Below, piece after piece: positions 11,977 to 42,280 of a stretch of 59,729 nucleotides of DNA. Every line of letters begins with the position of its first letter. Within the stretch, counting starts at the first letter, position 1. A program made the translations under genes and the position numbers. The stretch is from a virus (taxonomy: Duplodnaviria > Caudoviricetes). The stretch lies in IMG/VR virus record IMGVR_UViG_3300042485_001429, positions 1 through 59,729 of that record. The stretch is one strand, 5' to 3'. The notes under the pieces were generated by a model. That model saw only the letters and a program-made list of their open reading frames with translations. It was not told the DNA's origin and did no database searches.

Positions 11977-14900
11977 ATGAACGCTAAATATAAAAACCTA
12001 TACCAAGAATTAGTATCAAGAGATCTAACTAGCCTTGATGAGGATTTGTTTTATAATGAATACTCAACAAATGACCAAAAATTTGGAGAACTATACTCGT
12101 ATTTAGAGTCTGAGGGACTGACTAGTCTAGATCCAGAGACGTTTAAGTCCGAGTATCTTACTGACACTCCCGTTGAAAAAAAAAATCCAGACGTTACGGA
12201 ATTACCCTTGGAGACTGGTTCATCGGAGCGATTTACGGACCAAACGACTGAAGACCCATCAAGGGATGCTTGGAATAGACCAAAAGGTGATAAATGGTTT
12301 GGGTTTAATCCAGATACAAAAAAATATACTGAAGGTCCAAATAAAGGTTTAACTGGTAGTGACGTATTTTCTAATTCAGGGGCTTATATTCTTGAAAGTA
12401 ATCCAGAAGTTTTATATAAAAGAAATGGACAACATTGGCTTAAACAAGTCGGTGGTAAATATGTTCCTCTAACAAAAGGAGACATTCAAGCTAGAGAAAA
12501 AATACTAAACGAGCAAGCTGTTAAGGCAAGTCAGTTTCAGATTGATTGGATTAAAAACAACCCAAAAGAAGTTAAAATAGAGTATCAAGACATACCTGAC
12601 GATAAAATGGAACAGAAGTTTCCAGGCATAACTAAGATAACAAAAGAGGAAACGAAAAGATGGCAGGAAGAGAATAAAAAAAAACCTGTTGACACTAGAA
12701 AACCTACCTCAGAAACAATTGAATTAGCAATTGTAGGGGAAAAAATTTATGATCTTCAAGAAGAGCAATCTAAAAAAGAATTTTACGAAAGTCCTGTAAC
12801 ATCTGAATCATTTACATATTGGCTAGACGCTACTGGAAAGCCAAGACAGGGCTTAGATCCAGTTAAAAGTCAACAAGCATTAGATTTTGCAAAGAGACTT
12901 ATAGGTGAACCTGAGCTGGCACAGCTATCAAAAATAGATAAACTAGGTAAAATAAACCTTAACGTCCCATCTGCTGATAAATTTTTAAACAAAGAATTTT
13001 ATAACTCAAATTTTAGTTTTGAGCAGGATGGTAATGAATTAATAATTAACTCATACCTTCCAGGAGCAAAAAATAATGAAGGAGATATTGAAAATACTAT
13101 ATCAATTGATCTGTCTGGTAAAAATTCAGGGGCTACAATAAAACAATTCTTAAGAGATAATTTATTTTACAAGGTAGATGTAGACAGACTTAATAAGGCT
13201 TCAGAAAATACGGAAAACTATATTGATTTTATACTTTCATCTAGCGATAAGCTAAAAATGACAGACGATAGAAAAAATAAAATTCGTGATTGGCAGCAAC
13301 AAGAATCTGCGGTAATCGAGGCGGATATTCAAAGAAATGACTTAAATAATCTAGATAAGGAAATTAAATTGTATGAAAGTGCAGTATTGTCATTTAATAA
13401 AAAAGTTGCGTCTGGAAAAATGACTCAACAAGAATTTGATAAAGAAAATGATAACATATCAAATCAATACAAAGGCATACTTAAAAAACAAGAAATATCA
13501 TCAGGTCTACTAGAAAGAACAAAAAGACTTGAAGAAGCACAAAATCTACTTGAAATAACCTATCCAATAGAAGCAAAGGGAAGTATTTTAGGATCACAAT
13601 TACGAACTTTTGTGCAAAGTGTTGTTGCAACTCCCTTAAAAACGGGATTAGATATTAGTTTAGCTGCTGGGAACCTTATGATGGGGGATGAAAAATTTGC
13701 CAAATTTATAGATGGAAATTACGATGTTAAAAAATCAAGGGGATTAACTGATGCTGAAATAGCGAATAGTGCACAGGCTAAAGTAAAAGAACTTAATATT
13801 GGATTAACTGATTTAGCTCTTACTCAGGTAACAGGGACTAATAAAGAATACTATCAAGATCCAAATAACAGTAAGATTTTTCAAGCACTAAATGCCGTTG
13901 TAGAAAGTGTTGGTACAGCAGTAAGTGGTGGTGGTTCAAAAGCTTTAACAACAGCTGCATTCTTCTCTTTGTCTTACAATGCGATGGAAGATCAAATGAG
14001 AGGACCAGACTTTGATCACTTAACTGAAAACGAAAAGAAATTAATATCAGTTCCATATGGTCTTGTTATAGGTCAAATGGAAAAATTTGGATTTAAGGTT
14101 GCTGCTGGTGCTGGAAAAAATCCGCTATTTAATAAATTTGCTAACTCTGTCATAACAACAGCATTTAAAGGTTTACCTAAAAACGCTGGATTAGTAGAGT
14201 TAAATTCAGCAATACAAAAAAATATAGGTGCATCAATAGCCAAGGGCTTGATTAAAGTTGTAGGTGGAGGTGTTTCTGAGGGTAGTGTTGAATTTGGACA
14301 ACAAATATTTGAGGGTGTTGAAAAGTTTGCAGTAAACGAAATATTAAAGAACGATAACTTTAACCAGGAGTACTTTAAAGACGGTCAGGACCTAACAAAG
14401 GAAGGTGGATGGAAGACCTTAATAGACCAAGGATGGGATGCATTTAAGCTTGGTTTCTTGGCTGGTGGAATGACCACTGGTGGCAGCATGGTTAAAAATA
14501 ATATTGTAGATATAGGTTCTAATAATAAATTTGATATATATAAAAATCTTGTTTTAAATAAGGAGGCAAGAGAAGGATGGATAGCTAGTATACAAAAAGA
14601 AAAAGAGAATGGAACTATTTCATTTGAAGAAATGAACAAGAAGACGGACGAAATAAACAGATCATACTCTACACTAATAAAAATACCAGCTTCATTAACT
14701 ACACAGTCTCAAAGAGAAGCTTTTTCTTTACTACAAGAAAGAGAAAATATAGAAAACGAAATAAAAGATAAGGAACCTAATCTAGTAGTAAAGGAAACAA
14801 ATAGAATAAAAGAAATAAACGAAGCACTAAAAACAACATCAGAAAATGCCACTAAAGAAGACAACATCCAGCAACAAGAAGGTACAGCAGAAGGCGGTAT

Positions 14901-17900
14901 CAGCGAATATCAGGGAACTGGTGAAGGACAACCAGAAGTCGGGGTCAGCGAAGGGGGACAACGGGAAACCACGGTCAATGAAGCAGATAGTGGCGATAGC
15001 ACTGTCGCAAGCAAAGTACAGCAAGAAGAGCAAGTAGCAGCCTACAGAGCTGAAGAACAGGCTGAACTTATTAAGGCCATACCTAAAATAGAGAGCTACA
15101 AAGTAAATGGTGAGATAGATAAAACTCTCATGCCAAAAACTGTATTGGCTAAGTATAATAGTATATACAACAAGTATGACAACTTAATAAGTCCTCTATT
15201 AGAGCCTACAGCTGAAGTAGTAATCGATAAGCCTGTTATAACAACCAACACAACGGCTGAGGTAGAGAGAGTTAAATCTCTTACACCTGATTCAGAAGAC
15301 GGTGCCACATTCAATATTGACGGAACCAAGTACGAGGGTGTTGGTTTAGTTGTTCCAGTTGATAGCATGAACACTACAACAGAAGAATTGACTCCAGAAA
15401 TGGTAGCCGACTTTGTTGCAGAACGTCAAGAAATGATTGGTGATGCTGGTGTCGTTAAGGCTGGAATATATAAGTTTCCTAATAGCAATCAAGTATCAAT
15501 TGACCTTAGCGTTGTGGTTCCTGAAACATCAAGAGAACAAGCACTTGAGTTTGCAAGACTTGCTGGTCAGGAATCATTATTTGATCTAGCAACATTTGAA
15601 AATATTAAGACTGGAGCAACTGGTGAGAACCCTATGAGCTTTAGTCCAGAGCAGCACAGAGAAATATCTAAGGCGTTAAAGGAAGGAAAAATACCCAATG
15701 TATTTGGCACTACAGCTAAGACAACAAACAACTTACTAACAAAAGAAAACATTAAGGAAGTTGAAACAAAACAAACTACGCCTAAAAATAAGTTGATTGT
15801 GAAAGCCGCTAAAATGGTTTTAAATGCGATCCCTGGAGTTAAGATATACATGCACAACAATGGCCAAGAAATGGCTAGTGCTATTGAGGCATCAAAGAAA
15901 CAATTAACAAAAGAAGAAAAGACTGGGCTTACAGAATCAAGCGGTCTATATGTAGACGGTGATATTCATATTAACCTAGAGTCTGCAACTATTGGTACGG
16001 TGTATCATGAAGCATTTCATGCGTTGATTGAAAAAAACGGAATGAAGTCTGGGTCAATATTATTGATGGCAAAGGGCCTTAAAAATATTATATCTGACAA
16101 AGGTATTAAACAAAGATTAGATGATTTTGTATCTCAATACAATGAAGATGAAAAGGCAGAAGAATACATATCAGAGCTTGGTGGAATACTATCTGAGGCA
16201 GAGCAAGAATTAACTACAACAAAGCTACAGCAATTCAAAACATTGATAAATAATATCGCTAAGAAGCTAGGGTTGCCAGTTATATTTTCTGCATCAGCAA
16301 CTGCACAAGACGCTGCTGACTTTATTAATACCATGTCTAAGAAACTTAGGACTGGGGAAAATATACTTGCAGATGGATTTCAAACAAATATAATTTCTAA
16401 TAAAATAAAATCACAGATACCTGTAAAAGTAAATAAAAATCAAAAATTAACTTTTGTAAAGCAATCAGATATAATAGATATAAAATCTTTAGTTGACGAT
16501 ATTGTATCTAAAAATGAAACAGTATGGTTTTGGGTAGCTGACCAATTAGGTAGAGGAATTTATTTTGATAGTGTAATAGATGGAAATCATTACTTAGATG
16601 CTGGTCCATCATATGCACTTGATCCAGAAAATAGATCAAAAAACATAATATGGGCTAGTGGAGCAAATCCAAAAACTTTAAATAATAATATAGATCGTAG
16701 TGATTATATATTTATTATTAGTGGTTCACCACAGCTATCAAAGTTATTCAATAAAAAAGTATCTGGAATAGTAAGATCTAGAATAGAAGATAAAGTTGAT
16801 TTTAATGAATTTAAAAATAGTATACTAAATTCAAAGCCAACAAAACAAATTTTAAATATAATAAAGAAATATAATTCTTATGATGAATTGTTTAATGGTT
16901 CAGATAGGAAAGCTGTTTTAATTTCTATAAATGAACAAAAATCAAAGAACACTAAATTAAACAAAGTGTTAGAGTCATATGATGCATTTATAGATCTAAA
17001 CGAATTAAGAGATGGATTTTATAAAGAGAATGATTTTAAACTAGGCGATGTAATGCTAGTTTTAAAGCCAGAAAAAATAGGTGATAAATCAAACCATTCT
17101 ACATATGAAACTGATATCATTGGATCTGTAGTAGGTGTTCCAGATCTAGTTATTAATTCTTTTGATTTAATGACAGATGAAGTAAAGAATAAATATAAAA
17201 ATAATTTAGAGCGAGTACAACAACAACAGATAGTTGCTCCATATGGAATGGGTGTAAAAAATATATCCAAAATAAAATTCCGAAAGAATAAGACCGATAA
17301 ACTTACAGCACCAGTAGCTGGTAACAAGCTATTTAACGAGCCATTAAAACAGGCACTTGACATAGCAAAGTCGTACATGAAGTCAATAGGAATGGAATAC
17401 ACACCTGTTGAAAAGATAACAAAGCTAGACGAAGGCCTATCTAAAAGGATATCTGACGCTTACGATAAGATGAAAGATGATCCTACTGATCCTGAAGTAA
17501 AGGCCGCTTATGAGGCAATGGCTAAGGAGACCTTAGATCAGTATGACGCTATAACAGCAAAGGGATATAATCTAGAGATAAACAACAACGAGCCATACTC
17601 TTCTTCTGAGGACATGATAAATGATCTTAGAGACAACAATAGAATGAAGATATTCTCAACAGAGTCTGGATTTGGCGATACGCCAATTACTGAAAAACAA
17701 AGAGAAGAAAATATATTATTAAAAGACTCTGGTAGAAAGGACGCAAATGGAGAGACATTGCTAATAAATGATGTATTTAGATTTGTGCATGACTTCTTTG
17801 GTCACGCTAAACTAGGTAATAGTTTTGGTCCAATAGGAGAAGAAAATGCATGGAGAGTTCACTCTGAGATGTATTCACCAGAAGCTAAAAAAGCTATGAC

Positions 17901-20900
17901 ATCTGAAACAAGAGGTCAAAATAGTTTTGTTAATTTTAGTGGTGTTAATGACGCTGCGTTTAAGAAGAGAGACAAAGCAAGACAACTTCGTAAGGAAGGC
18001 AAGATAGATCAGGCCAACCAGATGGTTGGAGAGGTGTACGATGAGATGAAGTTTGCAGATCAAAAGATTGGTCTGTTGCCTAGCTTTGCAGTAGAAGAAG
18101 GAGCTCCATCTAAGATTAAGTTCCAGAAGACTCAACAAGAAACAAGGATGGACAGTGAGGCTGAAGCTATATTTAAAAAATCATTAGACCGTGGAGTAGC
18201 TTGGAATACCGCTATTCAGAATGTAATAGACTACATACAAATATCAAAGTGGTATGAAGATGCAAGCGACATAGACAGAGAGCAAAAAATAAGAGACTTT
18301 AGACAATCTAAAAAACAGAAACTAAAAAAGGCTCCATCTGTAGCTAAGATAATGGGAACACCTAAGCCAAGCACCGTAACAGTAACAGAAAAGACTGCAC
18401 TTAAAGATCAGATTAGACTTGAGGCAAGAGCTGCTAGGGAGGCTAAGGTTGACCTTAACCAAAAAAGAAAGTTGCTGTCAACTGCAATAAAGGGTCTAGT
18501 AAAACTTGGAAGATTAAATACAAAGCAAGCAGGAATAATAATTGCTAGGGTTGGATATGTAAACCTTGACAACCAAGTTATGGTTGATAGACTTGCAGAA
18601 TATGCTGCTAAGGTATTTGAAAAGGCAGACTATCAAGATACATTGTCTAGAGCTTTTTCATTTAGAAAAGAAATTAGAAAATTACTTAAGGGAGACATAC
18701 AGGCCGAGGTAGTTGGTATGGCCAAGAAGTTTAGCAAGATAGACCCATCAATGGTAGATGATATCGAGAAATACCTAGACATGGCAGAAATTGTTAAGAA
18801 TGCAATTAAGCCGTCTAAAGTAAATAATAAAAAACTTGATGTAAATATGAGAGAGTCAATGAATATTGATTCAGTATCAGAATTTACAAATGATGCAATA
18901 GAAAATCAAGAAAGAATATTAAAAGAAGAACTACTTGCTGTGCACAGTGAATTAGTTGATGCTGGAGTAATAGATGATAAAATGTCGTTAAGCGAAATAG
19001 AATTAATTATAAACTCACTAAAAGAAAAAGAAGAAGACGCTAATTATAAGGCAGACATACTAACATTTTTATCAAAGAGAATAGACACAATGTCTGCAAT
19101 AATAAAAGACATTCTTACATATAAGATTAATCCAATGACTGGTGAAGAGGTAGATCTAACTGAGAAAAATATTGACCTTATCTCTAGGATGCTTAACATT
19201 GATATAAATAACGTGTCTATTAAAGAGGCAATATTTATTGCTGAGGCAATGGATAACTTTATAAACAATAACATAACAAGCTCTGTTGAGGCGGTAATAG
19301 AAAAACATGAGGGTGTAACTGAGTTAGAAAACTTAATAGCTGACAAGGTTGTCGCTAGTCCACTTAGAAAATACTTTAGTACTTATGCAGGACAACTTTT
19401 CTCTGAACAAGTTGCATCAATGCCAATACTATTTGAAAAACTATTTGTAGGTGCAAAGAAAGGACTTATGATAGCTAAAAAAATGGGTTGGACTGCATTA
19501 ATAAATGGAGTAAACAAAGCAGAAAAAATATTTAATACTACTGTTGATGTATACTTTAAGCAATATTCAAAAACAAAGCCAAATGGTAAAAGTTTCAACG
19601 ATGCTGAAAATGTTTATGAAAGAGGTATGCTTGCATTCTTAAGTAGAAATGTATCAGGAACTGTAACACAACAATCAGAAGAGCTTAAAAGAAGAGTAGA
19701 GGTACTAAAAGAAAGCGTTAAAAGTCTATTAGAAGGATCCAGTAAGGAGCAAAAAATGGGTGAACTATACCAAAAGGTATACGACAAGCTTAACATAGAG
19801 TCTGGAGATATTGATGTTATACGTGCTAACGTAGATAAAATTAATAGATCTGCTGTTGGTTGGTGGATAAATCAGTGGGGAACTACATATAATGACCTGT
19901 CAGACATAAGTCTTTCTGTTTATAATACAGTGCTTAGTAGTGATACTTCATACACCACAGACAGATATAAATTATTAGCTAAATCGACTTCAAAAGAAAT
20001 AATTGATCCTAAAACTGGGTCATTTGGTAGAGATATAGAAATTCTAGACATGAATAAGGCAGGAGTTATAATGCCGTCTACGAGACCATCTGCATCAGCA
20101 GTATCAAATGCAAGTAGATATATTAGCCTAGATTTTGATGTTAACAATACATCTGCATACAAAGGAGCACTTATTGATATAAATACAGCTGCTGCAATAA
20201 GAAAAATAGATGGTTTTATAAACTCAAAAAAATTAGCTAAATTAATTCCAATAGAAGAGGACAGAGAGATATTTACAGGAAGAATAAGAGACTACATACA
20301 GGCCGCTAAAAACAAGATGCCTGTACAATCTGACAAAATGAGGTTACTCGATCAGCTCACTAATTTCCTTGGTGGAATTGGTGTAGCTAAAGCATTAGGT
20401 GGTATTGATCAAGTTGTAAAACAAACACTTCCAATTGCATTAAGTACAATTGTAAACTCTGGAAGATTTGATCTTGTTATGCCAGGATCAAGTGCAAGTG
20501 TATGGATCGATTCATTAGGGATGGCAATATCCAACCGTGGTCAAGAATCACAATCAACAATTGAATCAGTTGACAGAAGGTTAGAAAAAGCAGCTGGACT
20601 TATTGATAAATCAGCAAATGCTTTTGTAGACATACAGCAGTTTTGGTTAAAGTATTTTTTATCTAAGCCAGATGTATTCATCGCTAAGTCTTCATTTATT
20701 TCTTACTACAAGCAGTACCTATCAAATAACAATCAAAGTACAGATATTGATTGGGCTACACATAATGTCAATCAAGATGCGGCAGACTACGCAATGACAA
20801 TGGTAGACAGACAGCAAAATATATCTGATACTAAAATGGCTGGTAAAATATTCAGCTCTCAAAATTCTACAACAAAGATCATGAGAAAAATATTCTTACC

Positions 20901-21957
20901 TTTTGCATCATTCTCATTAAATCAAAAATCTAGAATGGTATCAGATATTAAGGTTCTAGGAATTAATAGTGGTGCATCAAAGCAGGACAAAATGATAGCT
21001 CTTAGATCTTTAGCATCTCTTCCATTTGAAATGGCGTTATATCAATCTATGAGTTTAGCTATACGTCTTGGATACCTTGCTATTGCAAAGGGAATAGTTG
21101 GAGCAATTGCAGATGACGATGATGAGGAAAAAGAAAAATTATTGGGCATGGAGGTATCTAAGGAGATGAAGAATGCAACAAAATATCCGTTAAGATCTAT
21201 GATTACAGATTTTCTTTCTCCAGCACCAGTGCTTGATAATTTAGTAGTTGGTGGAGCAAATGCTTTACTACGTCAATCAGAAGATAAGGAAATGATAGAT
21301 GATGCAGTATCCAAAAAGAATCTAATGCTTGAGGTTTTAGGAAAAGATAAAATGGATGAAGATCAAAAAGAAAAGTTTATTAAAAAATTTAAAAAAGATC
21401 ACGAGTATCAATTGTTTAATGATGAACAAAAATCATGGGGCACAATAGGTATTGGTACAGATTTGTATATAGAAATAATGGATAATGCAAAAACAGCGAC
21501 TACAGGAAAATATACTCAAGACTACATGGGAAATGAGTCAGAAAGATTCTTGCTTCCAAAAGATCAAGAGAACATTCAAAATGCCGTTATATTTGAAGCT
21601 TTGTTTGCATTAGGAATAGTTCCACGTGATGTCAATACCGTAACAAAGAACATAATAAAGTTATCAAAGAAGAACTCCTTAACAGAAAATCAATTTGAAA
21701 AATACAAGGCTGTTGGAAAAGAGACTGGTAGCAAGGTAACTGGATGGAAGATGGATCTGACTAAATCAAAATCAAAATTAGAGACAACAGTTTCCGAGAT
21801 TGAATGGATTGAAAAAAATGGAGGGTTAACTGAAAAGCAGGGCAAAGAGTATGTAAAACTTTCAGCAGCATTTGATGAGGTTTTATATAGAGATCTACAA
21901 AAAATTCAATCTGGAAAAACAGCTGATCAGATAATTAACTCTTACTCAAAAAAGTAG
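11977..21957 (+). CDS. Giant polyvalent virion/ejection protein
   Basis: 3326 aa; zincin HEAFH (16006-16020), HDFFGH module (17788-17805), long helical C-terminal region. Confidence 0.75.
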   Translation: MNAKYKNLYQELVSRDLTSLDEDLFYNEYSTNDQKFGELYSYLESEGLTSLDPETFKSEYLTDTPVEKKNPDVTELPLETGSSERFTDQTTEDPSRDAWNRPKGDKWFGFNPDTKKYTEGPNKGLTGSDVFSNSGAYILESNPEVLYKRNGQHWLKQVGGKYVPLTKGDIQAREKILNEQAVKASQFQIDWIKNNPKEVKIEYQDIPDDKMEQKFPGITKITKEETKRWQEENKKKPVDTRKPTSETIELAIVGEKIYDLQEEQSKKEFYESPVTSESFTYWLDATGKPRQGLDPVKSQQALDFAKRLIGEPELAQLSKIDKLGKINLNVPSADKFLNKEFYNSNFSFEQDGNELIINSYLPGAKNNEGDIENTISIDLSGKNSGATIKQFLRDNLFYKVDVDRLNKASENTENYIDFILSSSDKLKMTDDRKNKIRDWQQQESAVIEADIQRNDLNNLDKEIKLYESAVLSFNKKVASGKMTQQEFDKENDNISNQYKGILKKQEISSGLLERTKRLEEAQNLLEITYPIEAKGSILGSQLRTFVQSVVATPLKTGLDISLAAGNLMMGDEKFAKFIDGNYDVKKSRGLTDAEIANSAQAKVKELNIGLTDLALTQVTGTNKEYYQDPNNSKIFQALNAVVESVGTAVSGGGSKALTTAAFFSLSYNAMEDQMRGPDFDHLTENEKKLISVPYGLVIGQMEKFGFKVAAGAGKNPLFNKFANSVITTAFKGLPKNAGLVELNSAIQKNIGASIAKGLIKVVGGGVSEGSVEFGQQIFEGVEKFAVNEILKNDNFNQEYFKDGQDLTKEGGWKTLIDQGWDAFKLGFLAGGMTTGGSMVKNNIVDIGSNNKFDIYKNLVLNKEAREGWIASIQKEKENGTISFEEMNKKTDEINRSYSTLIKIPASLTTQSQREAFSLLQERENIENEIKDKEPNLVVKETNRIKEINEALKTTSENATKEDNIQQQEGTAEGGISEYQGTGEGQPEVGVSEGGQRETTVNEADSGDSTVASKVQQEEQVAAYRAEEQAELIKAIPKIESYKVNGEIDKTLMPKTVLAKYNSIYNKYDNLISPLLEPTAEVVIDKPVITTNTTAEVERVKSLTPDSEDGATFNIDGTKYEGVGLVVPVDSMNTTTEELTPEMVADFVAERQEMIGDAGVVKAGIYKFPNSNQVSIDLSVVVPETSREQALEFARLAGQESLFDLATFENIKTGATGENPMSFSPEQHREISKALKEGKIPNVFGTTAKTTNNLLTKENIKEVETKQTTPKNKLIVKAAKMVLNAIPGVKIYMHNNGQEMASAIEASKKQLTKEEKTGLTESSGLYVDGDIHINLESATIGTVYHEAFHALIEKNGMKSGSILLMAKGLKNIISDKGIKQRLDDFVSQYNEDEKAEEYISELGGILSEAEQELTTTKLQQFKTLINNIAKKLGLPVIFSASATAQDAADFINTMSKKLRTGENILADGFQTNIISNKIKSQIPVKVNKNQKLTFVKQSDIIDIKSLVDDIVSKNETVWFWVADQLGRGIYFDSVIDGNHYLDAGPSYALDPENRSKNIIWASGANPKTLNNNIDRSDYIFIISGSPQLSKLFNKKVSGIVRSRIEDKVDFNEFKNSILNSKPTKQILNIIKKYNSYDELFNGSDRKAVLISINEQKSKNTKLNKVLESYDAFIDLNELRDGFYKENDFKLGDVMLVLKPEKIGDKSNHSTYETDIIGSVVGVPDLVINSFDLMTDEVKNKYKNNLERVQQQQIVAPYGMGVKNISKIKFRKNKTDKLTAPVAGNKLFNEPLKQALDIAKSYMKSIGMEYTPVEKITKLDEGLSKRISDAYDKMKDDPTDPEVKAAYEAMAKETLDQYDAITAKGYNLEINNNEPYSSSEDMINDLRDNNRMKIFSTESGFGDTPITEKQREENILLKDSGRKDANGETLLINDVFRFVHDFFGHAKLGNSFGPIGEENAWRVHSEMYSPEAKKAMTSETRGQNSFVNFSGVNDAAFKKRDKARQLRKEGKIDQANQMVGEVYDEMKFADQKIGLLPSFAVEEGAPSKIKFQKTQQETRMDSEAEAIFKKSLDRGVAWNTAIQNVIDYIQISKWYEDASDIDREQKIRDFRQSKKQKLKKAPSVAKIMGTPKPSTVTVTEKTALKDQIRLEARAAREAKVDLNQKRKLLSTAIKGLVKLGRLNTKQAGIIIARVGYVNLDNQVMVDRLAEYAAKVFEKADYQDTLSRAFSFRKEIRKLLKGDIQAEVVGMAKKFSKIDPSMVDDIEKYLDMAEIVKNAIKPSKVNNKKLDVNMRESMNIDSVSEFTNDAIENQERILKEELLAVHSELVDAGVIDDKMSLSEIELIINSLKEKEEDANYKADILTFLSKRIDTMSAIIKDILTYKINPMTGEEVDLTEKNIDLISRMLNIDINNVSIKEAIFIAEAMDNFINNNITSSVEAVIEKHEGVTELENLIADKVVASPLRKYFSTYAGQLFSEQVASMPILFEKLFVGAKKGLMIAKKMGWTALINGVNKAEKIFNTTVDVYFKQYSKTKPNGKSFNDAENVYERGMLAFLSRNVSGTVTQQSEELKRRVEVLKESVKSLLEGSSKEQKMGELYQKVYDKLNIESGDIDVIRANVDKINRSAVGWWINQWGTTYNDLSDISLSVYNTVLSSDTSYTTDRYKLLAKSTSKEIIDPKTGSFGRDIEILDMNKAGVIMPSTRPSASAVSNASRYISLDFDVNNTSAYKGALIDINTAAAIRKIDGFINSKKLAKLIPIEEDREIFTGRIRDYIQAAKNKMPVQSDKMRLLDQLTNFLGGIGVAKALGGIDQVVKQTLPIALSTIVNSGRFDLVMPGSSASVWIDSLGMAISNRGQESQSTIESVDRRLEKAAGLIDKSANAFVDIQQFWLKYFLSKPDVFIAKSSFISYYKQYLSNNNQSTDIDWATHNVNQDAADYAMTMVDRQQNISDTKMAGKIFSSQNSTTKIMRKIFLPFASFSLNQKSRMVSDIKVLGINSGASKQDKMIALRSLASLPFEMALYQSMSLAIRLGYLAIAKGIVGAIADDDDEEKEKLLGMEVSKEMKNATKYPLRSMITDFLSPAPVLDNLVVGGANALLRQSEDKEMIDDAVSKKNLMLEVLGKDKMDEDQKEKFIKKFKKDHEYQLFNDEQKSWGTIGIGTDLYIEIMDNAKTATTGKYTQDYMGNESERFLLPKDQENIQNAVIFEALFALGIVPRDVNTVTKNIIKLSKKNSLTENQFEKYKAVGKETGSKVTGWKMDLTKSKSKLETTVSEIEWIEKNGGLTEKQGKEYVKLSAAFDEVLYRDLQKIQSGKTADQIINSYSKK
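12176..12251 (+). other. Candidate -1 frameshift/slippage site (A10) with short -1 frame extension
   Basis: G AAAAAAAAAA T at 12175-12186; -1 frame reads KSRRYGITLGDWFIGAIYGPND* (TGA 12249-12251). Confidence 0.4.
14846..15037 (+). CDS. Small basic protein nested in the +1 frame of the giant gene
   Basis: MPLKK...SANIRELVK...KQIVAIALSQAK resembles a widespread stand-alone small phage protein; A-rich start context. Confidence 0.7.
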   Translation: MPLKKTTSSNKKVQQKAVSANIRELVKDNQKSGSAKGDNGKPRSMKQIVAIALSQAKYSKKSK

Positions 21958-40711: not shown

Positions 40712-42280
40712 ATGATAGTAAAAGAGATTCACTTTGGCGATGACGGCCAAAAAAAACTAAAGTCTGGCATAAAAAAGATTGCTGGAGCGGTCAAGAGCAC
40801 GATGGGTGCAAGAGGCAGGACGGTACTAATAGAGTCCGAGAATCACATTGGCGGTATAACTGTCACAAAGGACGGTGTAACGGTCGCTAGGTCGATCAAT
40901 CTTTACGATCCCACTGAAAATTTAGCTGTAATGATGATGCGACAGGCAGCTGATCGCACTGCTGTTGTTGCTGGAGACGGAACCACAACGGCAATTGTGT
41001 TGGCAGAGTCTATAATTGACAACGCTGACAATATTATCGACAGTGCCGACAATATTACGGAGGTGATACGTGAGATATCTGAGATAACGACTAAAATTTG
41101 CTCAAGGTTGAGCAAGATGTCCAAGAAATTAAGTGGAAAGAAGCTACTTGATGTTGCCACCATCTCTGCAAATAACGACAGGGAGGTTGGAAAGATGATA
41201 TCTGACACATTTGGCAAGGTAAACGTTGTTACTGTCGAGAACAGTCAGACTCCAAGCACACACGTAGAGATAATCAGTGGAATGAAGATCGATCGGGGGT
41301 TCTCTTCTAAGTACTTCATCACTGATCAAAAGAAGCAGGAGTGTGTACTTGACAATCCTTACGTATTAATCACGGACCACGAGATATCCAACATACTAAA
41401 CATAGAGAAGGTTATCGCTCATGTTATATCATCTAATAAGTCGTTACTAATTATAGGTCAGCTTAGTGCATCTGCACTAAACACGTTAAACTTGAACGTT
41501 GCACAGGGCAAGATAAAGGCCTGCAACATAATACCTCCATCGTTTGGATACAGGAGCAAGGACCTGTTGTTTGACTTGTCTGTCTCGTTGGGTGGAACAT
41601 ACTTCTCTGAGGACACTGGTGACGATCTATCTGTTATTGAGGTTGAGGACCTTGGTCGTGCTTCTAGGGTTATTGTCAACAAGGACATGACCTTATTTAT
41701 GCCGTTACCAGCTATGGCTGATGCGATAGACAAGAACATTCAGGTGTTAAAGGAATCAATTGCTGAGACTACAGACGTTAACGAGGTAAACTTTATCAAT
41801 GAGAGAATCGCAAACATGTCTGGTGGAATTGGCATCATATATGTTGGTGCACTAAGCGACATTGAGCAAAAAGAAAAGAAGGACCGTATTGACGATGCTG
41901 TGTGTGCCGTAAAAGCTGCACTAGAGGACGGAATACTTCCTGGTGGTGGAATCGCATTGATAGATGCATTTGACCTTGAGTTTCCAGATGTAAGTACAAC
42001 TGCTGAAAAGATAATGTTAAACGCTGTTGCGTCTCCATTCAAGCAGATAGTATTAAACTCTGGCAAGAATCCTGAATTAATTTTATCTGAAATGCCAATC
42101 GGTAGAAATATCGGGTATGACGTGAAGAACGAGTGCTACGGTGACATGATCGGTATGGGCATTATTGACCCAACGAAGGTGACAAGAAATGCATTGATGA
42201 ATGCTGTGTCTGTTGCAACCACAATAATGAGTACTGACGCAATAATAACAAACATAAGAGACTATGAAGGTTCTAAATAG
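40712..42280 (+). CDS. groEL: Chaperonin GroEL
   Basis: VTKDGVTVA, AGDGTTTA, GILPGGG, GIIDPTKV. Confidence 0.95.
   Translation: MIVKEIHFGDDGQKKLKSGIKKIAGAVKSTMGARGRTVLIESENHIGGITVTKDGVTVARSINLYDPTENLAVMMMRQAADRTAVVAGDGTTTAIVLAESIIDNADNIIDSADNITEVIREISEITTKICSRLSKMSKKLSGKKLLDVATISANNDREVGKMISDTFGKVNVVTVENSQTPSTHVEIISGMKIDRGFSSKYFITDQKKQECVLDNPYVLITDHEISNILNIEKVIAHVISSNKSLLIIGQLSASALNTLNLNVAQGKIKACNIIPPSFGYRSKDLLFDLSVSLGGTYFSEDTGDDLSVIEVEDLGRASRVIVNKDMTLFMPLPAMADAIDKNIQVLKESIAETTDVNEVNFINERIANMSGGIGIIYVGALSDIEQKEKKDRIDDAVCAVKAALEDGILPGGGIALIDAFDLEFPDVSTTAEKIMLNAVASPFKQIVLNSGKNPELILSEMPIGRNIGYDVKNECYGDMIGMGIIDPTKVTRNALMNAVSVATTIMSTDAIITNIRDYEGSK

Follow-up and report, generated by a model that had tools for sequence, protein, structure and literature searches.

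The window analysed here is the whole of the virus record IMGVR_UViG_3300042485_001429 (Duplodnaviria; Caudoviricetes), a stretch of 59,729 bases that represents a 99%-complete phage genome. Its virion module consists of + strand genes between 112 and 21957, and ends with a giant open reading frame (ORF) of 10 kb, several neighbours of which match PHROG 'virion structural protein' families. Within the giant ORF lies a second, complete ORF for a small basic protein of the DUF6496/phrog_2423 family. Both are on the same strand, with the nested ORF in the +1 frame of the giant ((14846-11977) mod 3 = 1), exactly as a first-pass annotation of the letters had described it (Table 1). The products of the two frames were also said there to be complementary in charge, and they are: the small product contains 16 lysines and arginines and 3 acidic residues, whereas the giant-frame reading of the same bases contains 3 and 14, respectively. 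Hydrophobic residues make up 14% of that giant-frame stretch and 31% of the whole giant. Along the giant gene, the +1 frame is open in just 5 of 3256 windows of 70 codons.

Table 1. Positions of the giant ORF, the nested gene and the features that accompany them in the window.
Feature	Position	Strand	Description
Giant ORF	11977..21957	+	3326 residues; final gene of the virion structural module; hosts the nested gene
Embedded gene	14846..15037	+	63-residue basic protein, ATG to TAG; DUF6496/phrog_2423 family
Small-frame TAA	14828..14830	+	Five codons before the nested ATG; upstream bound, frame open from 14831
Nested start region	14816..14875 (-30..+30)	+	Purine/A-rich, no Shine-Dalgarno sequence, predicted fully unstructured
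Giant-frame reading of the overlap	14845..15039	+	Codons 957-1021; acidic, Gly/Gln/Thr-rich linker of low hydrophobicity
Nucleotide conservation island and GC spike	14803..15029	+	GC ~0.50, against 0.34 for the gene

The small protein matches phrog_2423 with residues 1-63 on profile positions 1-44 of 52 (E = 1.9e-5, 25.6 bits), and its relatives and fused forms match the same profile at 1e-9 to 1e-18. The match to Pfam DUF6496 (PF20106) spans residues 12-57 on profile positions 4-48 of 58 (E = 1.2e-4, 22.8 bits). Of 162 candidates retrieved from a database of 5.8 billion proteins, 42 are short homologues with E <= 0.01 (best 2.6e-27). PF20106 is precomputed on nine of these 42, which have phmmer E-values of 6.9e-21 to 8.9e-10, and the small ORF is thus a sequence homologue of PF20106-annotated proteins. 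The small protein and its short homologues were aligned in 43 rows (alignment A1). It resembles DUF6496 and phrog_2423 proteins in its length class and in an MPLKK-type N terminus, a NIREL motif and an R..QI.AIA helix, the last three being shared throughout A1. Used as a profile, A1 retrieves 948 clusters (50% identity) at E <= 1e-3 among 1.84 billion representatives, most of them 40-90 residues long and aligned from residue 1. The nearest ESM Atlas clusters are viral and have PF20106 on 15-17% of their members. In an AlphaFold2 model calculated with A1 (predicted local distance difference test (pLDDT) 85), helices span residues 11-29 and 45-55.

Structure and nucleotide searches returned little. 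Foldseek found no Protein Data Bank match among solved structures for the small protein (best E 5.3), a viral structure library gave only unnamed small phage proteins at E >= 0.24, and NCBIfam had nothing for it. Searches with blastn and tblastn of 50,697 GenBank phage records, with the low-complexity filter on, found nothing for the region or the peptide. The nearest GenBank relatives, MW202828.1 (first 50 of 60.85 kb) and the elemovirus NC_055854.1 (15.7 kb), contain giant genes and no match to the family in a six-frame scan. The literature searched contained no paper naming 'DUF6496' or 'PF20106'. Within the 99%-complete genome itself there is no second copy of the family, the nested ORF being the sole one (E = 3.7e-32 to the family profile). 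The expectation that annotators would discard such an ORF is only partly borne out, as some pipelines have called close relatives as predicted proteins (P0003-P0007).

A scan of IMG/VR with A1 identified 237 relatives, of which the best 80 were kept; locus counts refer to these 80. At 55 loci the small gene is an ordinary stand-alone gene without a long overlapping ORF (L062 included), and at several of these it directly follows a gene of 600-1600 residues. At the other 25 (L001-L018, L020, L023, L033, L035, L051, L053 and L059) it is embedded in a long ORF of 756-3862 residues, five of which are cut by contig ends. The small ORF occupies the +1 frame of its host ORF in all 25. Its ATG, its MPLKK, MPLQK or MPIKK start and its stop are likewise kept in every embedded locus (26 of 26 with the window), and a stop in the small frame lies 1-19 codons before the ATG in the relatives. 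The first-pass annotation had taken the ORF for a real embedded gene resembling a widespread stand-alone phage protein, and had named a lack of stand-alone homologues and stops in the +1 frame of close relatives as observations that would count against it. Neither was found: besides the phrog_2423 and DUF6496 matches and the 42 short homologues, stand-alone copies occur at 55 of the 80 viral loci and 948 clusters belong to the family, and every one of the 25 related long ORFs that contain the small gene has an open +1 frame complete with ATG and stop.

A broader suggestion, that acidic linkers of giant proteins hide genes generally, holds only for this one family. Twenty giants contain 116 alternative-frame open frames of at least 45 codons, 20 of which are the DUF6496 ORFs; none of the others looked protein-like by eye, without a profile search, and they resemble noise. 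Two giants share an identical 50-codon open frame in the +1 frame (L002:13157-13309 and L008:13172-13324, at codons 1979 and 2049), which encodes an acidic peptide that does not look like junk.

Selection on the two frames was compared by Fitch parsimony on a tree of the 26 embedded sequences, with flanks of 120 codons on each side. In the flanks the giant frame displays the ordinary pattern, in which position 3 varies most and position 2 least: changes per site at positions 1, 2 and 3 are 5.64, 4.34 and 6.75 upstream and 4.47, 3.65 and 5.73 downstream. In the overlap this 3>1>2 pattern belongs to the small frame (2.46, 1.70 and 3.92; p = 3.6e-13), and the giant frame has 3.97, 2.53 and 1.73, its wobble base being its least variable position. 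At none of the 25 loci does the giant frame exceed the small frame in identity to the window; small-frame and giant-frame values are, for example, 68 vs 42% in L017, 67 vs 34% in L033 and 61 vs 34% in L059, and the 150-residue flanks are mostly 20-37% identical to the window. Purifying selection in the overlap thus falls on the small frame and not on the giant frame, as judged from the codon-position pattern and the frame identities rather than from a nonsynonymous-to-synonymous (dN/dS) method for overlapping genes. Only in the small frame is the amino-acid sequence of the overlap conserved. This agrees with the earlier view of the acidic linker as the secondary reading.

The overlap also stands out at the nucleotide level. 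High-scoring segment pairs of the 10-kb gene with its relatives in blastn begin at 14803-14841 and end at 15013-15029, so that their ends coincide with the small ORF, and at 10 loci this island is the only blastn-detectable similarity across the entire gene. When the giant was used in tblastn, L023 and L035 matched only at residues 944-1018. GC content along the giant gene peaks at the overlap in 19 of 20 complete giants, and T at giant codon position 1 is at its minimum there.

The small gene differs between embedded and stand-alone copies in its codons. Embedded copies contain no stop in the giant frame, whereas the equivalent frame of the stand-alone copies contains a mean of 6.4 (range 1-13), and none of the 55 is free of them. 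At third positions of the small gene where a T would risk a stop in the giant frame, T is found at 0 of 589 sites in embedded copies as opposed to 29.0% in stand-alone copies; at the other third positions it is found at 25 of 897 (2.8%) as opposed to 27.6%. Lysine is encoded by AAG and AAA in a ratio of 282:75 in embedded copies (79% AAG), 198:360 in stand-alone copies (35%) and 128:217 in the rest of the giant. Base composition is skewed too, with a GC content of ~0.49 in embedded small genes vs 0.33 in their flanks, and a value equal to the flanks in stand-alone ones. The nested copy, out of frame and recoded, departs from the usual DUF6496 members, which have unexceptional codon usage, contain 1-13 stops in the -1 frame and occur either as stand-alone genes or as N-terminal domains fused in frame.

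Synonymous redrawing of the codons gives the scale of this recoding. When codons for the small peptide were drawn from the giant's codon usage, none of 20,000 draws left the giant frame open, and the mean number of stops was 7.7. In the reverse case, with the giant peptide held constant, the +1 frame was open in 4.9% of 20,000 draws. The lysine codons also bear on charge: AAG read one base earlier is GAA, for glutamate, whereas AAA would give lysine, and the acidity of the linker is therefore set by the codon choice of the small gene. The giant frame is kept open, hydrophilic and acidic through synonymous codons of the small gene. The earlier description of the linker as a by-product of the basic ORF is thus right in making it the secondary frame. 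It is not a passive by-product, because the small gene's codons are recoded in a way that keeps the giant frame open and acidic, with T at none of the 589 risk sites and AAG for 79% of lysines. A complex prediction for the small protein and the giant linker (A2 with A1) scored 0.01 and has no bearing either way. The antisense strand is open here as well, with a 64-residue ORF starting at TTG (14839-15033, -) and an open frame of 114 codons (14841-15183, -), most simply as a composition effect of the T-poor + strand.

The start of the nested gene is free of predicted RNA structure. Its minimum free energy (MFE) is 0.0 kcal/mol, whereas the 201 internal ATGs of the giant average -7.99 and 33 gene starts -3.09; no other site reaches its unpaired probability of 0.873. 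Among the 201 internal ATGs it has the least structure, and its MFE indicates less structure than at 31 of the 33 gene starts. Among 19 relatives, the nested ATG ranks 1-16 in this respect among 126-272 internal ATGs, and sixth or better in 17. Genes of the phage have A-rich leaders without Shine-Dalgarno sequences. Bacteroidota use unstructured, A-rich start regions for translation, and the leaders fit a Bacteroidota host. By this structure prediction, the nested start would be a site of internal initiation. In one relative, the small ORF is preceded by a perfect Shine-Dalgarno-like AAGGAGGTG (L033:9975-10003) six bases before the nested ATG within the giant gene; no such motif is present at 14 other sampled ORF starts of that contig.

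Four sequencing runs include RNA-library (metatranscriptome) contigs that overlap parts of 14575-16000. Their depth and ends reflect strain mixtures and so do not define a transcript start. One of these contigs joins 15028 to 15212 with six other letters between, and so represents a strain variant whose divergence sets in precisely at the nested gene's 3' end. In L005, too, the sequence departs from the window directly after the small ORF.

The segment 14846-15037 is thus very probably a functional small-protein gene nested out of frame within the giant gene, with the small frame the older of the two, both frames maintained and translation by internal initiation. The nested ORF would encode a small basic protein of two helices, one base out of frame. 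The ~64 giant codons lying over it would be the younger frame, and would be read as an acidic, disordered linker joining the giant's N-terminal part to its C-terminal part. Most likely the small protein is made from the giant messenger RNA by independent initiation at its own ATG, whose A/purine-rich, structure-free surroundings are of a type that would serve Shine-Dalgarno-independent, Bacteroidota-type translation.

Several observations weigh against this account. Translation of the small protein is something we infer from sequence. A position-weight model built from the 33 gene starts scores the nested ATG at -4.53, below 29 of the 33 and at rank 115 of the 201 internal ATGs, although the model is crude. 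The low RNA structure is not fully independent evidence, since it is partly a side effect of the T-depleted overlap. A Bacteroidota-type TAnnTTTG (-7) promoter motif is not conserved within 300 nucleotides upstream, being found at 5 of the 26 loci and at differing positions. The metatranscriptome contigs show no transcript end, and carry-over of DNA into them is possible. With regard to the family, the DUF6496 score falls 1.2 bits under the Pfam gathering cut-off of 24, and 19 of the 43 members of A1 reach E <= 1e-3 for PF20106 (best 5.2e-7). A1 is therefore a divergent wing of the DUF6496 family, and the small protein a borderline member in a divergent subfamily.

Other explanations start from the same overlap. 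Programmed frameshifting could join the frames in either of two ways: a +1 shift near 14831-14860 by ribosomes in the giant frame would attach a DUF6496 tail to the N-terminal part, or ribosomes from the nested ATG would shift -1 near the end of the small ORF to give DUF6496 followed by the C-terminal 2300 residues. In-frame fusions with DUF6496 ahead of large proteins do exist and the second chimera would mimic them; the A/G-rich lysine tract at the end of the nested ORF and the poor position-weight score of its start also favour a shift. However, all 26 copies retain an ATG and an MPLKK-type N terminus as in the stand-alone proteins, and the small-frame stop 1-19 codons upstream leaves a very short window for shifting. 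The sequences of that window and of the 3' end differ between relatives, with no common slippery motif by inspection, and the position of the stop codon varies. Frameshifting is therefore unlikely. The giant might also not be one protein at all: the region could consist of three genes, the small one lying between two others, and the frame-0 read-through would go unused. This matches the architecture of L020, where the host ORF of 756 residues ends 65 codons past the nested gene and separate genes follow, and the independent recombination of the giants' two parts around the island described below. It is nevertheless very improbable: frame-0 stops are absent from all 26 copies, T is missing at all 589 stop-risk third positions and none of the 20,000 neutral recodings is open, and since this recoding has no other explanation, the read-through must be under selection.

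The remaining possibility reverses the roles, making the +1 frame a by-product or decaying relic that is open since the linker is T-poor, with the DNA conserved for the giant or for an RNA or DNA element. Given the linker peptide, chance leaves the +1 frame open in the 4.9% of codon redraws noted above, and an antisense frame is likewise open here as an effect of composition. What a relic does not account for is the homology of the nested ORF to a large family of stand-alone proteins, the codon periodicity in the small frame with the giant's wobble base as the most conserved, or the retention of start and stop by all 26 copies even where identity has fallen to 61%; nor does it explain that the nested ORF is the genome's only copy of the family. 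It is the least probable of the alternatives and already close to refuted.

A functional nested gene raises the question of which frame came first. Under the phylogenetic criterion, as given in a relevant part of the review PMC8227390, the frame of an overlap that has the wider distribution is ancestral. The small gene is distributed more widely than the giant-frame stretch and is for that reason taken as the older frame; the giant-frame stretch would then have arisen de novo by later read-through, at a shift of +2 from the ancestral frame. The L020 locus may preserve an intermediate or a split architecture. Its short host ORF (L020:8116-10386) is homologous to the N-terminal part of the giants, and the next genes are separate (165, 948, 267, 394, 325 and 657+ residues), with no detectable kinship to the C-terminal parts of other giants.

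L006 encodes an identical small protein and is 27% identical to the window upstream of it and 91% downstream, and the N- and C-terminal parts of the giants recombine independently around the island. The giant flanks of L023, L033 and L051/L053 have no kinship to the main family detectable by BLASTP at 1e-5 or by hidden Markov model (HMM), for which fast divergence is a possible reason. A tree of 79 small-protein rows, from an alignment of only 56 columns, contains six changes between the embedded and stand-alone states, four of them forced by well-supported branches, and a single embedded clade is not rejected by the approximately unbiased (AU) test (p = 0.27). Nesting may have arisen once or several times.

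The giant itself, whose gene has a GC content of ~0.34, has few recognizable relatives. Its only PHROG match is phrog_3170, a family without an assigned function, at residues 1788-1989; the whole protein matches no Pfam family at E <= 0.01 and its four pieces match none significantly. A weak relative is gp18 of Flavobacterium elemoviruses, annotated as a 'structural protein'. The ~350 residues directly upstream of the nested gene (window 14600-14840, giant residues ~600-950) are the best-conserved part of the giants' N-terminal region, where HMM positions 580-931 match L059 and L020. They are rich in glycine and hydrophobic runs, suggesting a putative membrane-active or channel part. Downstream of the nested gene, an HExxH-like motif at window ~15840-15870 (giant residue ~1290) is possibly that of a candidate zincin peptidase; the stretch has no Pfam support.

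The phage's terminase is most similar to that of an uncultured podovirus from a spring (69% identity) and is 43.5% identical to a Flavobacterium elemovirus terminase, with Cellulophaga phages next. A scan of bacterial genomes for loci of the small gene returned seven, all on contigs of metagenome-assembled genomes (MAGs), and for this reason no firm host is assigned. The phage also encodes a GroEL-like chaperonin (window 40712-42280, +; phrog_5725, E = 4.6e-127), and in L039 a GroEL homologue (L039:4559-6064) is encoded two genes ahead of a stand-alone small gene.

Longer proteins that contain the same module bear on its function. Among 7999 candidates scored, 48 longer homologues were found, in which the module is usually an N-terminal domain. 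In-frame fusions place an InPase (P0092) or an ART-PolyVal domain (P0087) after it, and in some longer homologues it lies at the C terminus of an HNH-like or DUF5872 protein. Three of those with a C-terminal module (P0045, P0048 and P0088) still have a Met-Pro-Leu/Met start motif at the junction, and may be in-frame internal starts or mis-called fusions instead of true domain fusions. In the part of Iyer et al. 2017 that deals with them (PMC5512222), InPase and ART-PolyVal domains are components of capsid-packaged, injected polyvalent proteins, and those bearing InPase are described as likely packaged and injected. In other phages the module forms an in-frame fusion at the N terminus of polyvalent-type proteins, and the small protein could therefore, as a guess of low confidence, be a putative nucleic-acid-binding or virion-associated accessory of large packaged or injected proteins.

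The giant resembles the polyvalent proteins of phages (in the account given in part of PMC5512222) in being a large multi-part protein among virion genes, as well as through the fusions of the DUF6496 module to InPase and ART-PolyVal elsewhere. Unlike them, it has no detectable polyvalent domain, and its module is present as a separate frame and not as a domain of the polypeptide. Polyvalent proteins are recognized by at least two biochemically disparate domains; the giant has no recognized domain and is therefore not filed among them.

Nested genes are already known in phages. In lambda, Rz1 is nested inside Rz. In phiX174, gene E lies inside gene D (a case included in the portion of PMC8227390 on nested pairs), and the present locus is similar in having a complete small gene that is read from the same strand as a larger one, in a different frame, with both readings preserved. 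The classical nested pairs differ in that the nested gene is taken as de novo; here it is older and widely distributed, and what is new is the frame of a short part of its 10-kb host. That host, moreover, is a giant virion gene in a podovirus-like genome of 60 kb rather than part of a compact genome limited in size. Cases in which overprinting has created a disordered de novo frame have been treated by Rancurel et al. and by Willis and Masel (as summarized in a section of PMC8227390). As in those cases, one frame here appears to be ancestral and structured, with the pLDDT of 85 from AlphaFold2, and the other is compositionally biased and probably disordered. The same review, in its passage on +2 de novo proteins, states that they are enriched in basic residues, unlike the de novo stretch described here, which is acidic and would be a linker of an existing protein rather than a new one. 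The present case is an unusually clear, conserved dual-coding segment.

A wider view of the island is possible, though doubtful. The giant genes of these phages would have grown by reading, in another frame, through an already existing neighbouring gene, which survived being engulfed as the best-conserved 0.2 kb of a 10-kb gene. The island would then serve three ends: it would supply a distinct small basic protein whose synthesis from the giant messenger RNA is fixed in place and time, it would encode an acidic hinge of the giant, and it would be the homologous joint for the exchange, between phages, of the N- and C-terminal halves of giants.

The nested gene is of a type that standard gene callers suppress, and it occurs in an abundant group of uncultured freshwater phages. 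Its support is quantitative: codon-position variability is inverted, T is almost absent from one codon phase, GC content spikes over the overlap and the start lacks predicted structure. Overprinting would here run opposite to its usual polarity, the short nested gene being old and part of the long host gene being the new frame. The combination of a GC or T-phase anomaly with a stand-alone homologue provides a recipe to search for more cases. If the wider view is true, the nested arrangement may have come and gone repeatedly, and the out-of-frame absorption of neighbours would in that case be a general route to polyvalent or giant phage proteins. For the small-protein family, with its 948 clusters, the tie to large virion or injected proteins is threefold, by in-frame fusion, by adjacency and by out-of-frame nesting, and this narrows where its function should be sought.

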